Of a DNA stretch of 64,000 bases, positions 1,533 through 49,633 are shown piece by piece (within the stretch, counting starts at the first letter, position 1; every line of letters begins with the position of its first letter). The stretch is from contig CAVXIT010000001.1 of NCBI GenBank assembly GCA_963761985.1, positions 52,003 through 116,002 of the forward strand, given 5' to 3'. The translations under genes and the position numbers were made by a program. This DNA is from an uncultured Acidimicrobiia bacterium. GTDB lineage: Bacteria; Actinomycetota; Acidimicrobiia; Spongiisociales; ZC4RG35. A model generated the notes under the pieces. It did no database searches, had not been told where the DNA came from, and saw nothing but the letters and a program-made list of their open reading frames with translations.

Positions 1533-4161
1533 ATGAAACTCATCATCGTCGAATCGCCGGCCAAGGCCCGCACCATTTCCCGCTTCCTGGGCTCAGGTGT
1601 GGCCGTCGAGGCTTCGATGGGCCATGTCCGAGACCTCGAAACCAAGGGGCTCGGAGTGGATGTGGACGCCGGGTTCGTTCCCTCCTATGTCATTCCTCCG
1701 AACAAACAGGCAGTAATCAAGAAGCTCCGCGAGGCTTTGAAGAAGGCCGACGAGTTGTACCTGGCGACTGATGAGGATCGTGAGGGCGAATCAATCGCCT
1801 GGCATCTAACTCAAGTCCTCAAGCCCAAAGTCAACGTGAAGCGAATGGTGTTTCACGAAATCACCGAGCCGGCGATTCAGGGCGCCTTTGCCTCCCCGCG
1901 GGACATCGATCGCAAGCTCGTCGACGCACAAGAAGCCCGACGAATACTTGACCGGCTCTACGGATACGGAGTGTCGCCAGTGTTGTGGCGGCGAGTAAGA
2001 CAAGGTCTTTCGGCGGGACGGGTGCAAAGTGTGGCGATCCGGATCGTGGTCGAACGAGAGCGCGAGCGGATTGCCTTTGTCACAGCCGGCTATTGGGACC
2101 TCGAGGCCACGCTTGTCAAAGGCGACTCGGCCCCGTTTTCGGCGACGCTGGTGCAACTTGATGGAGCAAGAGTCGCAACCGGCTCCGATTTCGATTCCAG
2201 CGGGAGGATGGCCACCGAGAAAGCCGTAGTTCTTGACGAACCGGCGGCCAGGCAACTATCTGCCGAGCTCGAGAAGTCCGACTTCTCGGTGCGCGACGTC
2301 GAGACCAAGCCTTATCGACGAAGTCCCTATCCCCCGTTCCGCACCTCGACCTTGCAACAAGAGGCAGGCCGCAAGTTCCGCTTTTCCGCTTCCCGCACGA
2401 TGTCGGTCGCGCAGCGACTCTACGAATCGGGATACATCACCTACATGCGCACTGATTCGACCGCGTTGTCCGAATCTGCGGTGGCGGCGGCCCGAGCCCA
2501 AATCGGCTCGCTTTTCGGAGCCGAGTATCTGCCAGAGAAAGCGCGCAGCTATGCCAACAAGGTGAAGAACGCGCAAGAGGCCCACGAGGCGATTCGACCG
2601 GCCGGCGAGACGTTCCGCACTCCCGAGCAAGTCGGCCGGGAAGTGAGCGACGACGAGGCCCGGGTTTATGAGCTCATTTGGAAGCGGACCATGGCGTCGC
2701 AAATGAAGGACGCTCTCGGCGAGTCGATGTCAGTTCGGCTGGGGGCCATCTCTTCGAACGGGGCCGATGCCGAATTTGCAGCCAGTGGCCGCACCATCAC
2801 ATTCCCGGGCTTCCTGCGGGCTTACGTCGAGGGCAGCGACGACCCCGAAGCGGCACTGGACGATCAGGAGACTCCGTTGCCTTCCCTGCGCGAACGGTGA
2901 CGCGCTCGACCTGCAGAGCCTTGAGGCATTGGGTCATAGCACCAAACCGCCCGCTCGCTTCACCGAGGCGTCGCTCGTCCGGCGCCTGGAGGAATTGGGA
3001 GTCGGGCGCCCATCCACCTACGCCTCCATCCTGAGCACGATCAAAGATCGAGGGTATGTCTGGACCAAAGGGCAGGCGCTGGTTCCGACTTTCACTGCGT
3101 TCTCCGTGGTCAGCCTGCTCGAAGAGAATTTCGAGAACCTGGTCGACTACGCCTTCACCGCCCGGATGGAAGACGATCTCGATCGGATCGCAGAGGGAGA
3201 GGAACAAACCGTTCCCTGGCTAACGCGCTTCTACCTCGGACCGGAGGGGTTGCACCAACAAATCGAAGATCGCCTCTCCGAAATCGACGCCCGCGAGATC
3301 AACTCGATTCCGCTGGGGATGGATGAGAACGGACGTCCGGTCGTCATCCGGGTCGGCCGTTATGGCCCTTATCTCGAGCGCGGCGACGACCGGGCGTCGA
3401 TTCCGGACAACCTCCCCCCGGACGAACTCACGATGGAGCGTGCGATCGAGATCCTCGCCGAGCAGCCGGCCGGGGACAAGATCCTCGGCACCGATGCTGA
3501 CAGCGGTTTGGTGGTCATCGCCCGCACCGGCCGCTTCGGACCCTACGTTCAGCTGGGCGAAGCTGAAAACAAGACGAAGCCGAAAACGGCTTCGCTGTTC
3601 AAATCGATGAGTCTCGACTCGATCACACTCGATGAAGCGCTGCAGCTGTTGCAACTCCCTCGAGTGGTGGGCGCCGACCCGGAAAGCGGCAGCGAAATCG
3701 TCGCTCTCAACGGTCGCTATGGACCGTATCTCGACCGGGCCGGCGACACGCGGTCGCTGCCAACCGAAGAAGAGCTCTTCTCGATCACTCTTGATCGGGC
3801 CCTCGAGCTTTTTCGTCAGCCTCCCGCGAGACGCGGGCGCGCAAACGCGACTCCACGCCGGGAGCTGGGCACGACCCCCGAAGGTAAGACCGTTTCGGTC
3901 GGCAACGGTCGCTATGGGCCTTACGTCAGCGACGGCGAGATCAACGCCTCGCTTCGCACCGCCGACGACCCCGATCAGATAGATCTTGATCGAGCCTTGG
4001 AGTTGCTGTCGGCGCGACGCGAACGACTTTCCGACACCACCACGGTTGTGAGAAAATCGCGCGCCAAAAAGGCCGGCACGACCAAGAAGGCCGCTAAGAA
4101 AACGGCGAGCAAGAAGACGTCAGCCACCAAGAAGAAGGCCGTAGCGAAAAAGAAGGCATGA
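1533..4161 (+). CDS. topA: DNA topoisomerase I, split over two frames by a +1 frameshift near 2880-2895; Lys-rich C-terminal tail
   Basis: N-part 1533..2900 (MKLIIVESPAKARTISRFLG, Toprim, catalytic region) and C-part 2767..4161 (FTEASLVRRLEELGVGRPSTYASILSTIKDRGYV) are contiguous TopA sequence but sit in frames 0 and +1; actinobacterial-style KKAxKK tail at the end. Confidence 0.85.
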
Positions 4162-6399: not shown

Positions 6400-6999
6400 T
6401 TACGAGTCGGCAGAACCACAAAGAGTGGCCCACTCGGGCGACGGCCACGGGCGAAACTGATTGCGCACCGCCCGCAGCCCGACCGCGGCCACCTTTACGC
6501 CAACTACGCGCGGATTGAGCTTGTGAATGTGGACTTCTCTCGCCTTCAAAGGGTTGCGGTGCAAGATCACGGCAGTGGGGATGGCGAAGAGTCCGCGTAT
6601 CGGTTCAGCCGGATAAACAAGGAGAACCGAGCCGGAGGGTTTGACCACACGAGCCATTTCGGCCAGCGCGGCATCGACATCGGGAATGTGCTCGATGGCG
6701 TGAAACGAAACCACCGCGTCGAAGGTGTTCGATTCGAACTGGAGCTCGGTCGCCGACATGGTTTGCACGTGCGGCACGATCGCGACCTTTGCGGCGTTGG
6801 GATTCAAGTCGATTCCTTCTGCGTCGACGCCAAGATCACGCAAGGCGCCAACGAGATGACCGCGGCCACAGCCGACATCGAGCACACGGGCGTTCGGCTT
6901 TGGTCTCACCCAATCGCGGATCAGGTGGAGGTTGCGTGGGTTCCAACGGTTGATCAGCGCATAGCGGCGTGAGTCGTAGCCACTTTCGGTCTGAGCCAT
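6400..6999 (-). CDS. class I SAM-dependent methyltransferase
   Basis: VLDVGCGRGHLVGAL glycine-rich SAM motif, 199 aa. Confidence 0.75.
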   Translation of the reverse strand: MAQTESGYDSRRYALINRWNPRNLHLIRDWVRPKPNARVLDVGCGRGHLVGALRDLGVDAEGIDLNPNAAKVAIVPHVQTMSATELQFESNTFDAVVSFHAIEHIPDVDAALAEMARVVKPSGSVLLVYPAEPIRGLFAIPTAVILHRNPLKAREVHIHKLNPRVVGVKVAAVGLRAVRNQFRPWPSPEWATLCGSADS

Positions 7000-10752: not shown

Positions 10753-12714
10753 GTGACCTCGCGCTCGACGCCCGAAAAGAAGCCCCAAGTAAAACCGCCT
10801 GGCTGGAAGGTGGAAGGTGTCCCTCCCGTTGAGGACGACAAAAGCCAGCCAATCAATCCATTGCGACGGGCACCTAACCGCCGGGTCCTCATCCTCGCCC
10901 TCGCACTGCTCGCCGCGAACTGGTTCCTGACGTCACTCCTTTTCACTCCCACCCGACTCGAACTGTCGTACACCGAGTTTCTCGACGCCGTGGAAACCGA
11001 AAAGGTGGAGACCGTCTTCTCGCAGGGGGACACGATCCAGGGGCGCTTCCTCGCCCCCCAAGAGAACCCTGACGATGCCAATGAGACTGCTGATTTGTTC
11101 TCGACGGTCAGGCCGAGCTGGGCCGACGACAACCTCGTCGAGACTTTGCGGGACAACAACGTCGAGATTTCGGCGGTCGATCCCGAGCAACGCCCTATCT
11201 GGCAGCAACTCCTCTTCGGTTTCGGACCGACACTGCTTCTCATCTGGATCTTTGTGGCCATGTGGCGTCGGGCCGGCTCGGCCCTCGGGGGCATCGGTGG
11301 TCTGGGCAAGAGCAGGGCCAAGCGCTTCGAAGCCAGCACCCAGCGGACGACTTTTGACGATGTCGCCGGAATCGACGACGCCAAGGCCGAACTGACCGAG
11401 ATCGTCGACTTCCTCAAGAATCCCGGCAAGTACACCCGGTTGGGCGGGGCGATCCCCAAGGGAGTCCTGCTCTCGGGCCCTCCCGGCACAGGAAAGACCT
11501 TGCTGGCCAGGGCAGTGGCGGGTGAAGCCAACGTGCCCTTCTTTTCGATGTCGGCCTCAGAATTCATCGAAATGGTCGTCGGCGTGGGAGCAAGCCGGGT
11601 TCGTGACCTTTTCGAGGAAGCGAAGAAGGTTGCTCCGGCGATCATCTTCATCGACGAGCTCGACGCGATCGGCCGGACCCGCGGAGGCGGCGTCTCCCTC
11701 GGCGGGCACGACGAACGCGAACAGACCCTCAACCAAATTCTCACCGAGATGGACGGATTCACCGGATCTGAAGGCGTCATCGTCATCGCCGCCACCAACC
11801 GGCCCGAGGTCCTCGATTCGGCTCTGATTCGACCCGGTCGCTTTGACCGCCAGGTCGCGGTGAGCCCTCCCGATCAGCGAGGACGCCTCTACATCCTCAT
11901 GATCCACACCCGCAATGTGCCTCTAAACGCTGACGCTGATCTCTCCTCGATCGCTTCGTCCACTCCTGGAATGGTCGGAGCCGATCTGCGCAACCTGGTC
12001 AACGAGGCGGCACTGATGGCCGCTCGTCGCAACCACGACGACGTAACGATGGCCGACTTTGCCGACGCGCTGGAGAAGATCGTGCTGGGGACCGAGCGTC
12101 AGATCATGATGTCGGATGCGGAGAAAGAACGGACGGCCTTTCACGAGGCGGGCCATGCCCTCCTCGGAATGCTGCTGCCTGGTGCCGACCCGGTCCGAAA
12201 GATCTCGATCATTCCCCGCGGCCGCGCCCTCGGTGTCACCTTCCAGTCCCCCGATGCCGACCGCTACGCCTACGACCGCGGCTACCTCGAAGGGCGAATT
12301 GTTGGAGCATTGGGTGGCCGTGCCGCCGAAGAGGTCGTGTTCGGCACGATCACCACTGGTGCCGAGAACGATCTGGTCCAGGTGACGAGGATCGCCCGAT
12401 CGATGGTTGGGAAATGGGGCATGTCCGACGTCATCGGGCCAATCACGGTCATCGATGAGAACCGGGAAGCATTCATGCGACCCGAGGTGGGCGAGAAGAC
12501 CCAGGAACTCATGGACGACGAGGTTCGCCGGATCGTCGATGAGTGCTACCAGCGCGCCGTGAACGTGCTCAAGGAACACCGCACTCAGCTCGATGCGATT
12601 GCCGCCGCTTTGCTCGATAAGGAAACGCTTGACGAAGCGGAGGCCTATCAAGTCGCAGGCATTACTCGGACCGACGACAAGATGGACGAGAAGCTGGAAA
12701 CGCTCTCGAGCTAA
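10753..12714 (+). CDS. ftsH: ATP-dependent zinc metalloprotease FtsH
   Basis: N-terminal TM segments, AAA Walker [26 protein letters not shown] zinc site, 653 aa. Confidence 0.9.
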
Positions 12715-42966: not shown

Positions 42967-44346
42967 TTAGGCCGGTTCGGCGGGGCGAGGAAAGCTCCCT
43001 ACGACCGGATCCCCTTGTTTTACAACGGTTTTGACCAGGTTTTGGTCGGGCCGGTACCCGAGATGTCGGTAGTTGTCGGACTCGAGCACAACCACATCGC
43101 CCACGTCGCCGACCCGGAGGCGACCCTTCCGCGGCTCCTCCAAGGCAAGCGCCCCACCTCTCGTCGCCGACCACAACGCCTGATCAAGTGTCAGGCCCAT
43201 ATCGAGGCAAGCGACCGCGATGACAAGCTGCATCGAAGAAACGAGGGAACTCCCTGGATTGCAATCGGTCGCCAGCGCGACGGTGGCACCCAGGTCCCAC
43301 AGCAATTTTCCCGGCGCCTGGGGTAAACGCGTCGACCAGGAAGCCGTTGGACACAACACGGCCACGACTCCCGCTTCGGCAAGGCCCCGCGCCTGAGACT
43401 CATCGACGTTCTCGAGATGGTCGGCGGAAACCGCGCCGAGTTCGATCGCCAGTTCCACGCCGCCCGTATTGCCGAGCTGGTTGGCGTGAAGGCGCGGCTT
43501 CAAACCGTGCCGACTGGCGTGCTGAAGCACCCAACGAGCCTCATCGACGGTAAAGGCGCCGCGATCACAAAAAACGTCGCAATAGGTCGCAGCTCGCGCC
43601 GCCAAAGGCAGCATCTGCTCGATGAGCCGGAGATAGCCGGCTCGATCTTTGCCGTATTCGGGTGGAACCACATGGGCACCGAGGAAGGTGACGACGACAT
43701 CGACGGGAAGCGACTCGCCGACTTGGCGCGCGACTTCCAGAGATGCCATCTCGGTGGCGAGGTCGAGGCCGTAGCCACTCTTGATTTCAACCGTCGTCGT
43801 CCCGTGCTCCAACATGCTGCCGGCGCGCTCGATTGCCGAGCGCAACAAGTCAGCCGGAGTCGACTCCCGGGTTGCGGCGACCGTTGAACTTATGCCGCCG
43901 CCCGCTTCGAGGATCTCGACGTAGGTCGCTCCCTGCATCCGCAAGGCGAATTCGTGGCTGCGATCGCCCGCGAACACGAGATGAGTGTGCGAATCGACAA
44001 AGCCCGGAATGACGGCGCGGCCTTCGCATTCGATCGTGGGAAAGTGGCGATAGCGATTTGGCAGTTGCGACTCAGGACCGGTCCAGGTCACACTCCCCTG
44101 TCGGATAGCCAGAGCCGCCTCCTCGATCACGCCCAGTCGGGAACCATGTCGCGGATCGTTGGTCACGAGTTCGGCGATGCCGGTGAGGAGCAGGTCGCCG
44201 GTCGCCGGACGAGTTGACGGCAAGGCCACATCTGCCGCGAGGCGGACGCACGCCTCGCATATGGCCACCCACTTGGGCCCGGCAACCAGGCGATTATCCG
44301 GGTCCTCCGCCCTCCCACAGAATGAGCAGCGAAGTCTGCGGGCCAT
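42967..44346 (-). CDS. hutI: imidazolonepropionase with an N-terminal ClpX-type C4 zinc-ribbon extension
   Basis: FVDSHTHLVFAG and the rest of the amidohydrolase fold; first ~45 aa RLRCSFCGRAEDPDNRLVAGPKWVAICEACVRLA matches the ClpX ZBD consensus CSFCGK...LIAGP..YICDECV; ATG start, no in-frame stop between the domains. Confidence 0.85.
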   Translation of the reverse strand: MARRLRCSFCGRAEDPDNRLVAGPKWVAICEACVRLAADVALPSTRPATGDLLLTGIAELVTNDPRHGSRLGVIEEAALAIRQGSVTWTGPESQLPNRYRHFPTIECEGRAVIPGFVDSHTHLVFAGDRSHEFALRMQGATYVEILEAGGGISSTVAATRESTPADLLRSAIERAGSMLEHGTTTVEIKSGYGLDLATEMASLEVARQVGESLPVDVVVTFLGAHVVPPEYGKDRAGYLRLIEQMLPLAARAATYCDVFCDRGAFTVDEARWVLQHASRHGLKPRLHANQLGNTGGVELAIELGAVSADHLENVDESQARGLAEAGVVAVLCPTASWSTRLPQAPGKLLWDLGATVALATDCNPGSSLVSSMQLVIAVACLDMGLTLDQALWSATRGGALALEEPRKGRLRVGDVGDVVVLESDNYRHLGYRPDQNLVKTVVKQGDPVVGSFPRPAEPA

Positions 44347-44379
44347 GGGCGGGAGGGTACCGATGGTTAACTGATTGCC

Positions 44380-45486
44380 ATGTCCGACCCGGTGCCGCGC
44401 CCTCTCTCGATCCGCGTGCCGCCGGGCTCGGCAGTTGGCGCAGGACGCTTCGCGCAGGCCGGGCTGGCCGGTTACATCGGCGTCGAGCTGATCTCATTTC
44501 TCACCGGTGTGGTCACGCTTGTCCGCTGGAATGACCGAGAACGAGAACTCGCCGCCCCCGCCCCATTCTTCGCCGACGGCTGGGACCTCGGACTGGGGTT
44601 CGCCTACTTTGGCGTGTTCCTCGTATGTGGCATCGCGTGGCTGATCTGGCAATACCAGGCACACACGAATCTCTCCAACCTGACGCAAACCAGATTTCGT
44701 CCCGCGTCCGCGTTCTGGATCCTGGTCCCAGTCGTAAGCCTGTTCCTCCCCTATCGGGCCATCGCCGAGCTGACCCAGGCTGGGGTCGATCGACCGTCGT
44801 TGCGCCGGTGGTGGTGGGCGCTCTATCTGTCGATGAACTTCCTCATCGGGCTCGCCTCCGGTTTCGCCTTGCTGGAAAACCTCTTGGCTTCGACTGCGAT
44901 ACGAGCCGTCGGCGCGGTTCTCGGCATCGGCGCGGCGATCGCCGCGATCCGGGTGATTTCACTCGTCAATACCGGGCTTGAGACTCGACGAATATCGGCT
45001 GGCTGGGTGGCCGGTCCGCCGCCCCTCTCGAGGAAGTTCAGCCTCGTTTGGGCAGGAGCGGCGCTGGTGTCGACCGTGCTTGGTAGTGGCCTGATGGGGT
45101 GGGCTCTTCCCGCGATCGTGCGTGCTATCCCGACGATCCCTGCCACCAATCTCGCATTTGCCGTGGGCGATTGTTTCAACGAAACCGCCGAGGAATTTGT
45201 CGACATCAGTTGCGATGAACCTCACCAGGCAGAGATCTACGAGGTGCTTGACCACCCTGATGCATCGGCCTATCCCGGGGGACAGCTGATCGCCGATTGG
45301 GCCGAGCCTCAGTGTTACGCCCGTTTCGAGTCCTACACCGGCGTTGCCTATCCGGACTCGGCGCTCGAGTTCAACTATCTCTTCCCAACGGCGGCGGGCT
45401 GGCGGGAGGGAGATCGTGAAGTGATCTGCTACCTGTTCGATCCATCCGGGGACGATCTCACCGAGCCTATTGCCAATCCCGCTTGA
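44380..45486 (+). CDS. membrane protein with DUF4328-like N-terminal TM region and C-terminal septum-formation-like Cys domain
   Basis: four TM helices (WWWALYLSMNFLIGLASG), C-terminal CFNETAEEFVDISCDEPH..CYARFESYTG..VICYL. Confidence 0.6.
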   Translation: MSDPVPRPLSIRVPPGSAVGAGRFAQAGLAGYIGVELISFLTGVVTLVRWNDRERELAAPAPFFADGWDLGLGFAYFGVFLVCGIAWLIWQYQAHTNLSNLTQTRFRPASAFWILVPVVSLFLPYRAIAELTQAGVDRPSLRRWWWALYLSMNFLIGLASGFALLENLLASTAIRAVGAVLGIGAAIAAIRVISLVNTGLETRRISAGWVAGPPPLSRKFSLVWAGAALVSTVLGSGLMGWALPAIVRAIPTIPATNLAFAVGDCFNETAEEFVDISCDEPHQAEIYEVLDHPDASAYPGGQLIADWAEPQCYARFESYTGVAYPDSALEFNYLFPTAAGWREGDREVICYLFDPSGDDLTEPIANPA

Positions 45487-45495
45487 TTGGGCCGC

Positions 45496-47169
45496 CTAGC
45501 CCGGCCGGGTTCCCATCGGTACTCGCACCCCGCGCTCTTCGGCTGTCTTCCGCGCGATCTCATATCCGGCGTCGACGTGACGGAGGACCCCCATGGCCGG
45601 ATCGTTGGTAAGAACACGCTCGACCCGAAAAGCACCATCGGCGGTGCCATCAGCCACGACCTGTGCCCCGGCATGGATCGACTTCCCGATCCCCACTCCT
45701 CCGCCATGATGAACCGCAACCCAGGCGGCGCCTGAGGCGGTGTTCACCAAGGCGTTGAGGATCGGCCAGTCGGCAATCGCATCCGAGCCGTCAGCCATCG
45801 CCTCAGTCTCCCGGTAAGGGGAGGCCACGGAGCCCGAATCGAGGTGGTCGCGACCAATCACAATCGGGGCTGCGACACGACCGGAAGCCACCAGGTCGTT
45901 GAAAGCGAGTCCTGCTTGGTGACGTTCGCCGTATCCCAGCCAGCAGATGCGAGCTGGGAGTCCCTGGAACGGAATCTTCTCGGCCGCCATCCGCAACCAA
46001 CGTTGCAAAGGGTCGTTGTCGGGGAACAGTTGCGCGACCGCTCGATCGGTCTCAGCAATGTCGGCGGGGTCACCGGAGAGAGCGACCCATCGAAACGGCC
46101 CGAGGCCCTCACAGAAGAGCGGCCGGATGTAGGCGGGGACGAAGCCCGGATACGCAAAGGCATCCGCGAATCCACCGAGGATCGCTTCCCCGCGGAGGTT
46201 GTTGCCATAGTCGAACACCTCGGCCCCAGCACGTTGCAGATCGACCATGGCCGCGCAATGCTCGGCCATCGCTCGCCGACTTTCGACGATGTATCGCGTC
46301 GGGTCGGCCTCCCGCAGTTCGGCCGCCGCTTCGAGAGTGAACCCGTTGGGGACGTAACCGTTGAGGGGATCATGAGCGGATGTCTGATCGGTCACGATGT
46401 CGACTGGGAGCGCGCGGCGCGCCACCTCGGCAAAGAGATCAGCGGCGTTGGCGACCAAGCCGATCGAAAGCGCCTGTCGTGAATCCCGAGCTGATTCAGC
46501 TTGTCGAAACGCATCGTCGAGATCGGTGGCAAGGACGTCGAGGTATCCGATCTCGAGCCTTCGCTGCAGCCGGGAAGGATCGATATCGACGGCTATCACG
46601 ACTCCACCGTTGAGAGTCACCGCCAAAGGCTGGGCACCCCCCATCCCGCCGACTCCTCCGGTCAGGGTGATAGTGCCGGCTAACGATCCGCCGAAGCGCT
46701 GTTCGGCAATGGCAACAAAGGTTTGATAGGTGCCCTGCAGAATGCCCTGTGTGCCGATGTAGATCCATGAGCCAGCGGTCATCTGGCCGTACATGATCAA
46801 ACCGGCCGCTTCGAGTTCCCAGAAGTGATCCCATGTCGCCCACTCGGGCACCAACAGGGAATTGGCGATGAGAACCCGGGGGGCGAGCGGATGAGTGTTG
46901 AGCACTCCGACCGGCTTCCCCGACTGGACCAGCAGCGTCTCGTCGTTCTCGAGTTCGGTCAGGGAGCGGACGATGGCATTGAGTGCTTCCCGGTTGCGAG
47001 CGGCTTTCCCGCGCCCCCCATAGACGACCAGGTTCTCCGGATCTTCGGCGACCTCCGGATCGAGATTGTTTTGCAAGCAACGCAGCGCCGCCTCCTGGAG
47101 CCAACCCTTGGTGTGCAGCTCGGCCCCGCGATAGGTGGAAGCAAAAGGCAGATCGACCATGGCCGGCAT
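45496..47169 (-). CDS. hutU: urocanate hydratase
   Basis: 557 aa, NAD-binding [10 protein letters not shown], highly characteristic urocanase sequence throughout. Confidence 0.9.
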
Positions 47170-47249: not shown

Positions 47250-48035
47250 CTAGCCGAGGAGGTTGCGCAGCGAACGGATCAGGCTGATCGAGGCTTCGGT
47301 CTGTGTCGGGGTCAGCCGTGAACGCCTGATCTGTTGGGCGAGCCGCTCGATCTCTTCGGCCAAGTCCGATGCCTCCGCGAAGGCGGGAGCAAGATCAACC
47401 GGGGGAACGTCGACGATCGAAAGCGAGATCGGCTTGGGCTCGTCGGCCAACGCCGGATGACGCGTATAGGCGGTCGCGGGCATCGACCAAAGCGGGCCGG
47501 GCTCAGGTTCCTGAATCGGGGCCGGCTCGGTGAGCCGAAAGTCGTCGTCGCCGGGCTCAGGTTCGTCAGTCAGCTCCTCGGGCCGATTCGCCTTGGCTAC
47601 TTCGATCAAGTCGCGCAGTCGCTTCACGTTCGCGGGGATCTCGTCGGCGTCGGGCTCATGCACAATCACGGCCGGCTCCGAAGGTGCAACCACAGAGGGC
47701 GCCTCTGTCGGAGCCGGAGACGAGGTCTTGCGTCCTCCGCCAAGGAGCTTGCGGAAACCCTGGGCCGCTTCGGCGAGCGGCTTGCGCGTGAGTTTGGGGA
47801 GGGCTTCGTACGAAAAGGCAAGGGCGTCGTCGGCCGCGAAAACTGCCCGGTCGTCACCCAGGTAGAGCTCGAAACGGTCGCCTTCGATCCGCTCGGCCTT
47901 CACCTGCCCTACGGGCCAACTCCCGAGCACGTCGTCGCCCGAAATGAGCTCGACCTTGCTGCCGGATATTGAGAGTTCGCTCTTCAACCATCCGTCAGGG
48001 TCGGACTCGGTTTGGAGACGTCCGTTGAACCGCAT
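47250..48035 (-). CDS. hypothetical protein: small N-terminal beta-rich domain + acidic/Pro-rich disordered linker + C-terminal helix
   Basis: 261 aa ORF between hutU and hutH, same orientation. Confidence 0.5.
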   Translation of the reverse strand: MRFNGRLQTESDPDGWLKSELSISGSKVELISGDDVLGSWPVGQVKAERIEGDRFELYLGDDRAVFAADDALAFSYEALPKLTRKPLAEAAQGFRKLLGGGRKTSSPAPTEAPSVVAPSEPAVIVHEPDADEIPANVKRLRDLIEVAKANRPEELTDEPEPGDDDFRLTEPAPIQEPEPGPLWSMPATAYTRHPALADEPKPISLSIVDVPPVDLAPAFAEASDLAEEIERLAQQIRRSRLTPTQTEASISLIRSLRNLLG

Positions 48036-48088: not shown

Positions 48089-49633
48089 TCAGTGTTTCGC
48101 GAACCCCTCGAGAACGGCATCGACCTCTCCAGTGCGGATCAGCTTGGCGACCGCTTCCATCTCGTCGCCGATCATTCGATCAGCGGTAAGTGGCGGAACA
48201 TGGGACCGGATGAGCTCGGCCAGGCTGGCCACGCCCGGACCTGGCCGGAGCGGAAGCCGGAATCCCAAACCCTGGGTCGCAATAAGCATTTCGATGGCAA
48301 TGACGGTCGAGACATTGGTGATGATCTGGCCGAGTTTCTTTCCGGCTCCCCAGCCCATCGAGACATGATCCTCCTGCGAACCGGAGGTGGGAATCGAATC
48401 GACCGAGGCCGGATGGGCCATCACGCGGTTCTCCGCCACGAGGGCGGCGGCGGTGTATTGGGCCATCATGTATCCCGAGTTGAGGCCAGGGGATTCGGCC
48501 AGGAACGGCGGGAGTCCGTTAGATCGTTCCGGGTCGAGCATGCGATCGACTCGACGCTCCGAGATCGAACCCAGTTCGGCGACCGCGATAGCGAGGAAGT
48601 CGAGGATGAAAGCCAGTGGCTCGCCATGGAAATTGCCACCGGACAAGACTTCGTCGTCAGCTGCGAACACGATTGGGTTGTCGACCACCGATCCCAGCTC
48701 TCGCTCCGCGACCAGAGTGGCGTATTCGATCGTGTCGAGCACAGCTCCATGAACCTGCGGTGCGCAGCGAAGTGAATAGGCGTCCTGGACTGCGTGCACG
48801 AAATCTTCGTGATGGCTGGCGTCGATTTCGGATGACTCGATCAGACCGGCGATGCGAGCAGCCGACAAAGCCTGGCCCGGATGGGGGCGAACGCGATGAA
48901 TCTGCGGGAGAAAAGGACGCGACGAGCCGGTCAACGCTTCGACCGACATCGCACAGGCGGCATCGGCAGCTCGGACGAGGCGGTGAGCGTCGTCGATCGC
49001 CAGGCAGGCCATCGCCAACATGCCTTCCGTCCCGTTTAACAGGGAAAGGCCCTCCTTCGCCTCGAGTTTGATCGGCTTCAGCGTTTTTGCCGCTACCGCA
49101 TCGGCCGAGCTGATGACCTCGCCCCCGACGCGTACCGAACCTTCGCCGATCAAAGGCAACGCGAGATGGGCGAATTGAGCGAGATCGCCCGATGCCCCCA
49201 CCGAGCCCTGCGAGGGCACGATGGGGAGGACATCACGATTGAGCAGATCGAGGAGAGCCGCCGGGATCTCGGACCGGACACCAGAATGGCCCTGGCTCAG
49301 GGTTCGCGCCCGCAACAGCAGCATCGCCCGCACCAATTCGTCCGGGACCGGCGCACCCACACCGGCGGCATGGCTTCTGAGCAAGTTCACCTGCAGGTCG
49401 GCAGCCTGCGAAGCGCTCACCCGGGTCGAAGCGAGCGCACCGAACCCGGTGGTGATCCCATACACAACGGCGTTGCTGGCCAAGGCTCTTTCGACTACCG
49501 CCCGAGCGGGGGCCATGCGTTCGGCCACCTCGGGTCCGAGCTCAGCTCGGGCGCCACCGCGAGCCACGGCAACTACATCGCTTATGTGAAGCGGGTCACC
49601 GGTGACCTCGACAGTGGTGACGCTCCCGGGCAT
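48089..49633 (-). CDS. hutH: histidine ammonia-lyase
   Basis: SVGASGDLAQFAHLAL (ASG MIO-forming triad), 514 aa. Confidence 0.9.
   Translation of the reverse strand: MPGSVTTVEVTGDPLHISDVVAVARGGARAELGPEVAERMAPARAVVERALASNAVVYGITTGFGALASTRVSASQAADLQVNLLRSHAAGVGAPVPDELVRAMLLLRARTLSQGHSGVRSEIPAALLDLLNRDVLPIVPSQGSVGASGDLAQFAHLALPLIGEGSVRVGGEVISSADAVAAKTLKPIKLEAKEGLSLLNGTEGMLAMACLAIDDAHRLVRAADAACAMSVEALTGSSRPFLPQIHRVRPHPGQALSAARIAGLIESSEIDASHHEDFVHAVQDAYSLRCAPQVHGAVLDTIEYATLVAERELGSVVDNPIVFAADDEVLSGGNFHGEPLAFILDFLAIAVAELGSISERRVDRMLDPERSNGLPPFLAESPGLNSGYMMAQYTAAALVAENRVMAHPASVDSIPTSGSQEDHVSMGWGAGKKLGQIITNVSTVIAIEMLIATQGLGFRLPLRPGPGVASLAELIRSHVPPLTADRMIGDEMEAVAKLIRTGEVDAVLEGFAKH

Follow-up and report, generated by a model that had tools for sequence, protein, structure and literature searches.

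The 64,000-nucleotide stretch of DNA analyzed here (hereafter the window) comes from an uncultured Acidimicrobiia bacterium (assembly GCA_963761985.1, contig CAVXIT010000001.1, positions 52,003 to 116,002) and carries on its reverse strand a gene, at 42967-44346, for an imidazolonepropionase (HutI) preceded by a zinc ribbon of the type known from ClpX. The assignment draws on the open reading frame (ORF) list, the sequence itself, Pfam, NCBIfam and homologues. The ORF, which opens with ATG and is not interrupted by any stop, comprises 459 amino acids plus the stop codon. Pfam assigned residues 6-40 to zf-C4_ClpX and the remainder of the protein to amidohydrolase families. The NCBIfam equivalog model for HutI (TIGR01224) matched residues 74-446 with 408.5 bits (cut-off of 298.15) over profile positions 1-376 of 377, and residues 51-449 could be aligned end to end with residues 6-413 of the Bacillus subtilis HutI 2BB0 (E = 2e-84). 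Based on these Pfam, NCBIfam and PDB sequence matches, the protein is a normal HutI with 50 additional N-terminal residues. It is not a ClpX, as the ClpX equivalog models of NCBIfam reached 19.6 to 23.8 bits, from the ribbon only, against cut-offs of 359 to 371. Indeed, where ClpX has its AAA+ ATPase with the ClpP-binding IGF loop, the region downstream of the ribbon is an amidohydrolase (residues 51-449). The original prediction, made from the sequence alone, had proposed a ClpX-type zinc ribbon in frame with and ahead of a complete HutI, and this architecture is borne out by Pfam, TIGR01224 and the 2BB0 alignment. The N-terminal sequence that it quoted was also found, as was the ATG at 44346 with no stop inside the ORF.

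The ribbon (residues 6-40, 44227-44331, reverse strand) is a C4 zinc ribbon of the treble-clef type, supported by Pfam, by matches to ClpX zinc-binding domains (ZBDs) in PDB and by AlphaFold2 (AF2) modeling. PF06689 matched it with 46.9 bits (gathering cut-off of 27, E = 2.4e-12) over profile positions 2-36 of 39, and a phmmer search of PDB with the first 50 residues returned the ClpX ZBDs 2DS5 and 1OVX (E. coli) with E-values of approximately 3e-6. Its four cysteine ligands are C7 (44326-44328), C10 (44317-44319), C30 (44257-44259) and C33 (44248-44250), all on the reverse strand. This CxxC...CxxC arrangement was invariant in all 52 fused homologues aligned, together with F9, G23 and I29. When the ribbon was modeled by itself, AF2 placed strands at residues 20-23 and 27-30 and a helix at residues 31-41, hence two hairpins and a C-terminal helix as in a treble clef. 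The best PDB match of this model was the ClpX ZBD 2DS5_A (1.7 Å in root-mean-square deviation, rmsd, over 36 columns, 47% identity, probability of 1.00). The structure prediction called for originally returned a ClpX-ZBD fold in front of a HutI body. In the full-length model, the ribbon had predicted local distance difference test (pLDDT) values of 72 to 82, which fell below 50 for residues 41-46. AF2 therefore predicts the ribbon to be a small domain in its own right, joined to the enzyme by a low-confidence linker.

The linker itself (residues 41-50, 44197-44226, reverse strand), delineated from pLDDT and the alignment, comprises the end of the zinc-finger helix and a Pro/Ser-rich tether. 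Its sequence was specific to subclades (E-V-A-L-P-S-x-R-P, E-I-T-G-E-H-A-F-E-Q-T-S or E-I-N-Q-A-D-L-T-Y). In 52 of 52 proteins, HutI began, with G-D-L-L-L, 16 to 18 residues after the last Cys; so constant a length points to a defined geometry more than to a loose tag.

Compared with the ClpX ZBD, the ribbon has the same Cys4 treble clef and the same C-S-F-C-G...L-[IV]-A-G-P...I-C-x-x-C-[VI]-x-L pattern, with 47% identity to the E. coli domain over 36 residues, and the hydrophobic pattern of the helix (C-V/I-x-L-A-x-x-V) is retained in the HutI ribbons. It differs in preceding an amidohydrolase instead of an AAA+ ATPase and in having Ala for the helix Cys. Furthermore, two residues separate A-G-P from the next strand in the 59 HutI ribbons compared (three in one ribbon), whereas ClpX has one. 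At the aromatic position of the V-[YF]-I-C motif, ClpX and 143 of 195 non-HutI ribbons have an aromatic residue, whereas 54 of the 59 HutI ribbons have Ala or Gly and the remaining ones Ser or Thr. The ClpX-signature loop (A-G-P-x-V, with its one residue) and the aromatic are thus both absent from the HutI ribbons, a subfamily difference that plays no part in Pfam membership. The longer loop and the missing aromatic are systematic across the fused HutI proteins. The match to ClpX had been described as almost residue-for-residue, a wording slightly overstated in view of the added loop residue and the Ala in place of the aromatic.

The HutI body (residues 51-449, 43000-44196, reverse strand), defined from TIGR01224, the 2BB0 alignment and Foldseek, is predicted from its sequence to be a catalytically intact imidazolonepropionase, the enzyme of the third step of histidine catabolism, which hydrolyzes the 4-imidazolone-5-propionate produced by HutU to N-formimino-L-glutamate (EC 3.5.2.7). 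The metal ligands H120, H122, H287 and D361 are intact; in the alignment to B. subtilis HutI, they fall on its motifs D-x-H-T-H, H-A-D and D-F-N-P-G, and they were invariant in the 52-sequence alignment of fused homologues. The full-length AF2 model had a mean pLDDT of 89.8, with values above 90 for the HutI body. Using Foldseek, the modeled body matched 2GOK_A best (E = 9e-43, template modeling (TM) score of 0.93 normalized to the target, rmsd of 2.1 Å), and the next four matches were all HutI. With canonical HutI (TIGR01224; 2BB0/2G3F from B. subtilis and 2GOK/2PUZ from Agrobacterium tumefaciens), it shares a full-length body, the metal ligands (HxH, H, D), 38 to 40% identity, TM scores of up to 0.93 and a location within a hutH-hutU-hutI cluster. 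The fusion differs from them in its 50 added N-terminal residues, as the G-D-L-L-L strand is where the sequence of solved and typical HutI proteins begins. Furthermore, in the subclade of the window a divergent membrane-protein gene lies between hutU and the fused hutI.

The fusion is conserved in relatives, which was one of the checks proposed originally. A search of 5.8 billion proteins yielded approximately 70 protein clusters (448 to 468 amino acids, 55 to 99% identity), all with PF06689 and amidohydrolase domains, and their sources were all Acidimicrobiia metagenome-assembled genomes (MAGs) or soil metagenomes. Among GTDB genomes, scanned at one per species, the fusion was present in 21, all of uncultured Acidimicrobiia. 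Remoter homologues of 402 to 428 amino acids start at the G-D-L-L-L strand without the ribbon. The start position of the fused proteins was constant (M/V-A-R-x-(L-R)-C-S-F-C), with the start codon at most six residues ahead of the first Cys, and many fused loci had an in-frame stop 3 to 10 codons upstream of the start. In addition, the hutU stop and hutI start overlap as TAATG in locus L004, and GAGGAG precedes a TTG start in L002. The Nei-Gojobori method, applied to 20 coding sequences, gave mean non-synonymous differences (pN) of 0.235 in the ribbon and 0.226 in the enzyme body, with mean synonymous differences (pS) of 0.694 and 0.668, respectively. According to these values, the ribbon and the enzyme are under purifying selection of the same strength.

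These data bear on whether the extension is translated at all, as the ribbon could be an annotation artefact, namely an untranslated leader or a decayed separate gene, with HutI starting from a downstream GTG. Such in-frame GTG codons do exist (V27 and V40), downstream starts were picked by some gene callers (P0033, P0045, P0048 and P0054), and the ATG of the window is not preceded by a Shine-Dalgarno sequence. On the other hand, a TANNNT hexamer located 6 to 9 nt upstream of the start fits leaderless initiation, and the ribbon is conserved at the protein level as strongly as the enzyme, with invariant Cys residues. Proteins P0048 and P0054, listed without PF06689, were considered as unfused close homologues and rejected, because the ribbon lies in frame just upstream and the caller had used an internal start. 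In P0012, P0033 and others lacking the ribbon by sequence, the start is likewise miscalled or contig-truncated, and an in-frame ribbon lies upstream of it. A downstream GTG start or untranslated leader was ruled out by conservation, pN/pS, the constant start and the upstream stops, together with the miscalled nature of the exceptions. The artefact explanation is therefore effectively refuted and retains next to no probability. Of the two outcomes originally named as fatal to the prediction, a lack of conservation of the N-terminal 45 residues did not hold in relatives, and a true start at the downstream GTG is at odds with the upstream ATG/GTG start that these relatives share.

Directly 5' of the hutI start lies a conserved element, AGTTAACCATCGGTACCCTCCCGCCC (44347-44372, reverse strand), which includes the hexamer TACCCT at 44354-44359. 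The 25 to 26 nt before the start (AGTTAACCATCGGTACCCTCC(C)GCCC) were almost identical in 11 loci in which synonymous sites were 55 to 70% diverged, and the counterpart of the window element occupies the same position in L005-L011, L023 and L024. The TANNNT-type hexamer of the window lies 7 nt ahead of the ATG, and TACCCT, TAGCCT or TACGCT was found 6 to 9 nt before the start codon in 22 of 26 fused loci examined (counting from the downstream in-frame GTG for L021 and L022), the hexamer being missing in L002, L004, L012 and L025. Loci with hutU directly upstream also have it, and there the TAG stop codon of hutU falls inside the hexamer. No canonical sigma-70 promoter was detected upstream of hutI by a consensus scan. 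The hexamer could be the -10 box of a hutI transcript that has no leader or a short one, and the sequence conservation suggests that the element is an internal promoter for a leaderless hutI mRNA, or an operator.

To place the ribbon among its relatives, the 50-residue extension was compared by phmmer with 1.84 billion representative proteins (E up to 0.001), resulting in 1163 matches. The best 150 of these 1163 were mostly small tandem-ribbon proteins; counting CxxC...CxxC motifs, 126 had two copies, 15 had four, one had six, five had three and two had one. The matches were ranked by summed score, which brings tandem proteins first, and single-copy enzyme fusions were not among the matches listed. 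Even copy numbers suggest that the ribbons work in pairs. Larger proteins were also found, with the architectures 2xZnF-aspartate/ornithine carbamoyltransferase, Hsp70-Sel1-2xZnF, Clp_N-2xZnF and TPR-5xZnF (ZnF, zinc finger). The carbamoyltransferase fusion is located in a pyrR-pyrB-pyrC-carA operon and is therefore PyrB with two N-terminal ribbons. These fusions and tandem proteins indicate that the ribbon is a promiscuous portable module and that HutI is one of several enzymes to have acquired it. Like the HutI ribbon, they carry a PF06689-type domain as an appended module outside ClpX, and 2xZnF-PyrB is likewise an N-terminal fusion to a metabolic enzyme within its operon. In contrast to HutI, with its single copy lacking the aromatic, they almost always have even copies per chain and usually keep the aromatic. 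The tandem-ribbon family, which is very large, and its fusions (proteins P0121-P0270; L087, 1892-3289) all lie outside the window, and the database names of ribbon proteins are absent or misleading ("ribosomal protein L37AE", "Clp ATPase subunit"). We found no experimental work on free-standing or fused ClpX-type ribbon proteins.

What the ribbon does for HutI can be approached through ClpX. The ClpX ZBD homodimerizes unaided, through its C-terminal helix and beta-hairpins (PMC5890618), and serves as a docking platform for adaptors carrying short LKxh/XBR motifs (PMC7226468). The anti-sigma factor CsfB of B. subtilis is another small Cys4 treble clef that forms a homodimer through the C-terminal helix and hairpins, and CsfB and the ClpX N-domain were reported as the only dimeric treble clefs (PMC5890618). 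CsfB illustrates that a treble clef can act as a dimerizing, partner-binding module outside ClpX; unlike the HutI ribbon, it has sigma factors as partners and no enzyme attached, and with approximately 20% identity to ClpX its homology is doubtful. The best explanation overall, which we hold with moderate confidence, is that the ribbon is a dimerizing or partner-docking module on an intact HutI. By homology to the ClpX ZBD, the ribbon would be non-catalytic and mediate protein-protein interactions. The two ribbons of a HutI homodimer would pair with each other, in the way that ClpX ZBDs pair constitutively, giving one ClpX-N-domain-like dimer per HutI dimer that could clamp or position the enzyme dimer and/or present a surface to which a partner protein could dock by a short peptide motif. 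Considering the extra loop residue and the missing aromatic, the partner specificity of the HutI ribbon is probably its own and not that of ClpX. The loss of the ClpX-typical aromatic also argues, from sequence, against a straight functional copy of the ClpX N-domain. Among the functions suggested originally (zinc-dependent regulation, interaction with ClpX/ClpP or oligomerization), oligomerization or partner docking fits the evidence best in our analysis.

Stoichiometry is consistent with this dimerizing or docking role. PyrB catalytic chains are trimeric and solved HutI structures are dimeric; the PDB entries of B. subtilis and A. tumefaciens HutI have two chains per entry. With two ribbons per chain on a trimeric PyrB and one on a dimeric HutI, both enzymes could pair every ribbon. 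The even copy numbers, the two ribbons of PyrB and the one of HutI, the helix pattern and the fixed tether would together favor ribbons paired at a defined geometry. Several points weigh against it. Ribbon-ribbon pairing is predicted by homology, the structure models being those of monomers, and the ClpX-typical aromatic is replaced by Ala or Gly in most HutI ribbons, which could weaken dimerization if this residue belongs to the dimer interface. The summed-score ranking favors multi-copy proteins, although it does not account for the scarcity of three-copy proteins. No partner gene strictly co-occurred with the fusion in the flanks examined. Finally, in a neighbor-joining tree of HutI cores, six divergent fused sequences nested among unfused ones, so that the fused proteins were not cleanly monophyletic. 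This may reflect one gain followed by secondary loss, or an error of the tree, and may leave room for loss of the ribbon and hence for its dispensability.

The most attractive specific alternative is a link to ClpXP turnover, in which the ribbon ties HutI to the Clp system and the enzyme is delivered to ClpXP when histidine catabolism must stop, through mixed dimers with the ZBD of the organism's own ClpX or through shared adaptor tails; conversely, the ribbon could be a decoy that titrates adaptors. The homology to the ClpX ZBD speaks for it, as does the ability of the isolated ZBD, supplied in trans, to compete with ClpX for adaptors and inhibit adaptor-dependent degradation in E. coli (PMC7226468), and related ribbons are fused to Clp_N and to Hsp70 plus Sel1 (two ZnF in each case). 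However, without the aromatic and with a longer loop, the HutI ribbons are not faithful ClpX mimics, and no clp or adaptor gene was found near the fusion in approximately 25 fused loci; we consider proteolytic control unlikely, though the likeliest of the rivals. Somewhat less probable is a ZBD-ZBD network comprising ZBD-tagged HutI and PyrB together with the tandem-ribbon proteins. In this case, the cis-encoded ribbon would be a built-in docking tag that may pair with the ClpX N-domain, or with tandem-ribbon proteins in the role of an adaptor or anti-adaptor. If true, this network would bring direct, adaptor-free control of histidine catabolism and other nitrogen-metabolism enzymes by proteolysis or sequestration.

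Thioredoxin-2 (TrxC) has a short N-terminal extension with two CxxC pairs binding zinc and, along with Hsp33 and zinc-dependent anti-sigma factors, is a precedent for another explanation, that of a redox or zinc switch. Here, the Cys4 site would be a sensor from which oxidation or zinc limitation frees Zn2+, unfolding the ribbon and altering the activity, assembly or stability of HutI. The four invariant Cys are compatible with such a switch, but any structural zinc site would show them. A faint resemblance to the thioredoxin-2 N-terminal zinc finger (2PPT) also came up in the phmmer search of PDB, a match that is not significant (E = 0.26), and the TrxC finger belongs to a different zinc-finger family for which a redox-sensing role has been proposed. 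Zinc occupancy and oxidation are reported to gate ClpXP substrates such as MqsA (PMC8808172), yet the gene context of the fusion is devoid of redox genes; we regard a switch as improbable. A role in nucleic-acid binding is very unlikely. According to this explanation, the ribbon would bind the element upstream of hutI, or the mRNA, and the enzyme would regulate its own operon in the manner of PutA. Treble-clef fingers in general can bind DNA, the 25-nt element is conserved far beyond synonymous sites, and a dedicated hut repressor gene was not visible in the clusters. Nevertheless, the net charge of the ribbon averages approximately 0 (range of -3 to +3) and a basic surface is not conserved, which disfavors nucleic-acid binding. 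Moreover, the most divergent fused loci (L002, L004 and L025) keep the ribbon without the element, and a promoter would explain the element. Nucleic-acid binding is not a known property of the ClpX ZBD.

In the literature searched, we found no paper describing the HutI-ribbon architecture, in line with the expectation that it had not been described, and the non-ClpX members of PF06689 received incidental mentions only. The fusion proteins are already public under the name "imidazolonepropionase", with PF06689 among their precomputed domains. The ribbon is partly hidden in public annotation, because gene callers sometimes truncate the genes at an internal start. Both parts are known, and the combination is a variant of a known enzyme confined to uncultured organisms. 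Its importance lies in the fact that work on the ClpX zinc-binding domain has dealt almost exclusively with its role as the dimerizing, adaptor-docking head of an unfoldase. Here, an enzyme of ordinary catabolism has long retained a ClpX-type domain, and selection on this domain matches that on the active site in strength. The HutI and PyrB fusions, together with more than 1000 matching representative proteins, suggest a general portable interaction or regulatory tag, uncharacterized so far. If the tag served to couple enzymes to one another or to proteolysis by Clp, a new layer of post-translational control would be added to the nitrogen metabolism of Actinomycetota.

The genomic context places the fusion in a histidine-utilization cluster. 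On the same strand, 1.1 to 5.3 kb upstream of the fused hutI, are hutU (45496-47169; urocanate hydratase, the step before HutI; Pfam Urocanase_N, Urocanase and Urocanase_C) and hutH (48089-49633; histidine ammonia-lyase, the first step of the pathway; Pfam Lyase_aromatic, 633 bits), the latter being syntenic in related loci. The gene order was stable: enoyl-CoA hydratase, hutH, an unknown ORF, hutU, hutI with its ZnF, HU, GDPD and leuD. In relatives, the fused hutI lies directly downstream of hutU, whose stop abuts or overlaps the hutI start. The unfused Acidimicrobiia relatives L026-L028 (50 to 55% identity) have hutU-hutI-GDPD-leuD at the same place; therefore, the ribbon was added to the resident hutI and not to a paralogue. 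Judging from this synteny, a ZBD-coding module of approximately 150 nt joined the resident hutI at the hutU-hutI junction in an uncultured, mainly soil lineage of Acidimicrobiia. No stand-alone ribbon gene beside an unfused hutI and no second ribbon gene near a fused locus were found in the window and 87 loci. A putative archaeal fusion (Bathyarchaeota, L062; HutI match from residue 5) was discarded as an alignment artefact, its N-terminal match being riddled with stop codons.

In the window, an inserted gene for a membrane protein with DUF4328 and Septum_form domains (44380-45486, forward strand) separates hutU from hutI and runs opposite to both, with 33 nt between the divergent start codons. 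This insertion is limited to a subclade (the window, L005-L016, L020, L023 and L024) and splits a hutU-hutI pair that is translationally coupled in other relatives. Between hutH and hutU, there is a conserved ORF without Pfam match (47250-48035, reverse strand, in the window; 7189-8301 in L001). Its N-terminal domain of approximately 85 amino acids (M-R-F-x-G-R-L-Q...F-S-Y-E-A-x-P) and its C-terminal helix are conserved, whereas the long middle between them, acidic, proline-rich and apparently disordered, varies in length. The ORF was present in most fused loci, and absent from L002, L004 and the unfused L027. As candidates for obligate partners of the fusion, orf261 and the DUF4328 gene were both rejected, each being missing from some fused loci. 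Among the subset of window ORFs scanned, there was no HutG, nor HutF with N-formylglutamate amidohydrolase, for the last step of histidine catabolism, and no HutC-type repressor, clpX or clpP. The only AAA+ protease found among these ORFs was FtsH (10753-12714).

Some irregularities were also observed in the window and related loci. In L024 (CAWIXU010000007.1), a relative with 96% identity, tblastn recovered all genes of the syntenic block in at least two pieces each, and the hutI ORF ends early at 6948, a breakage typical of indel errors in long-read assemblies and not of real pseudogenes. Two contigs of MAG DATFBM01 (SMAG_U8528), L006 and L008, each carry a copy of the block from enoyl-CoA hydratase and hutH to leuD, with 76 to 77% identity to the window. 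A duplication could account for the two copies, but two strains binned together are more likely. Finally, topA, encoding DNA topoisomerase I, appears to be split in the window over the overlapping ORFs 1533-2900 and 2767-4161 (forward strand), the first covering Toprim and the first three quarters of Topoisom_bac and the second the end of Topoisom_bac and the C-terminal repeats, suggesting a frameshift or an assembly error.

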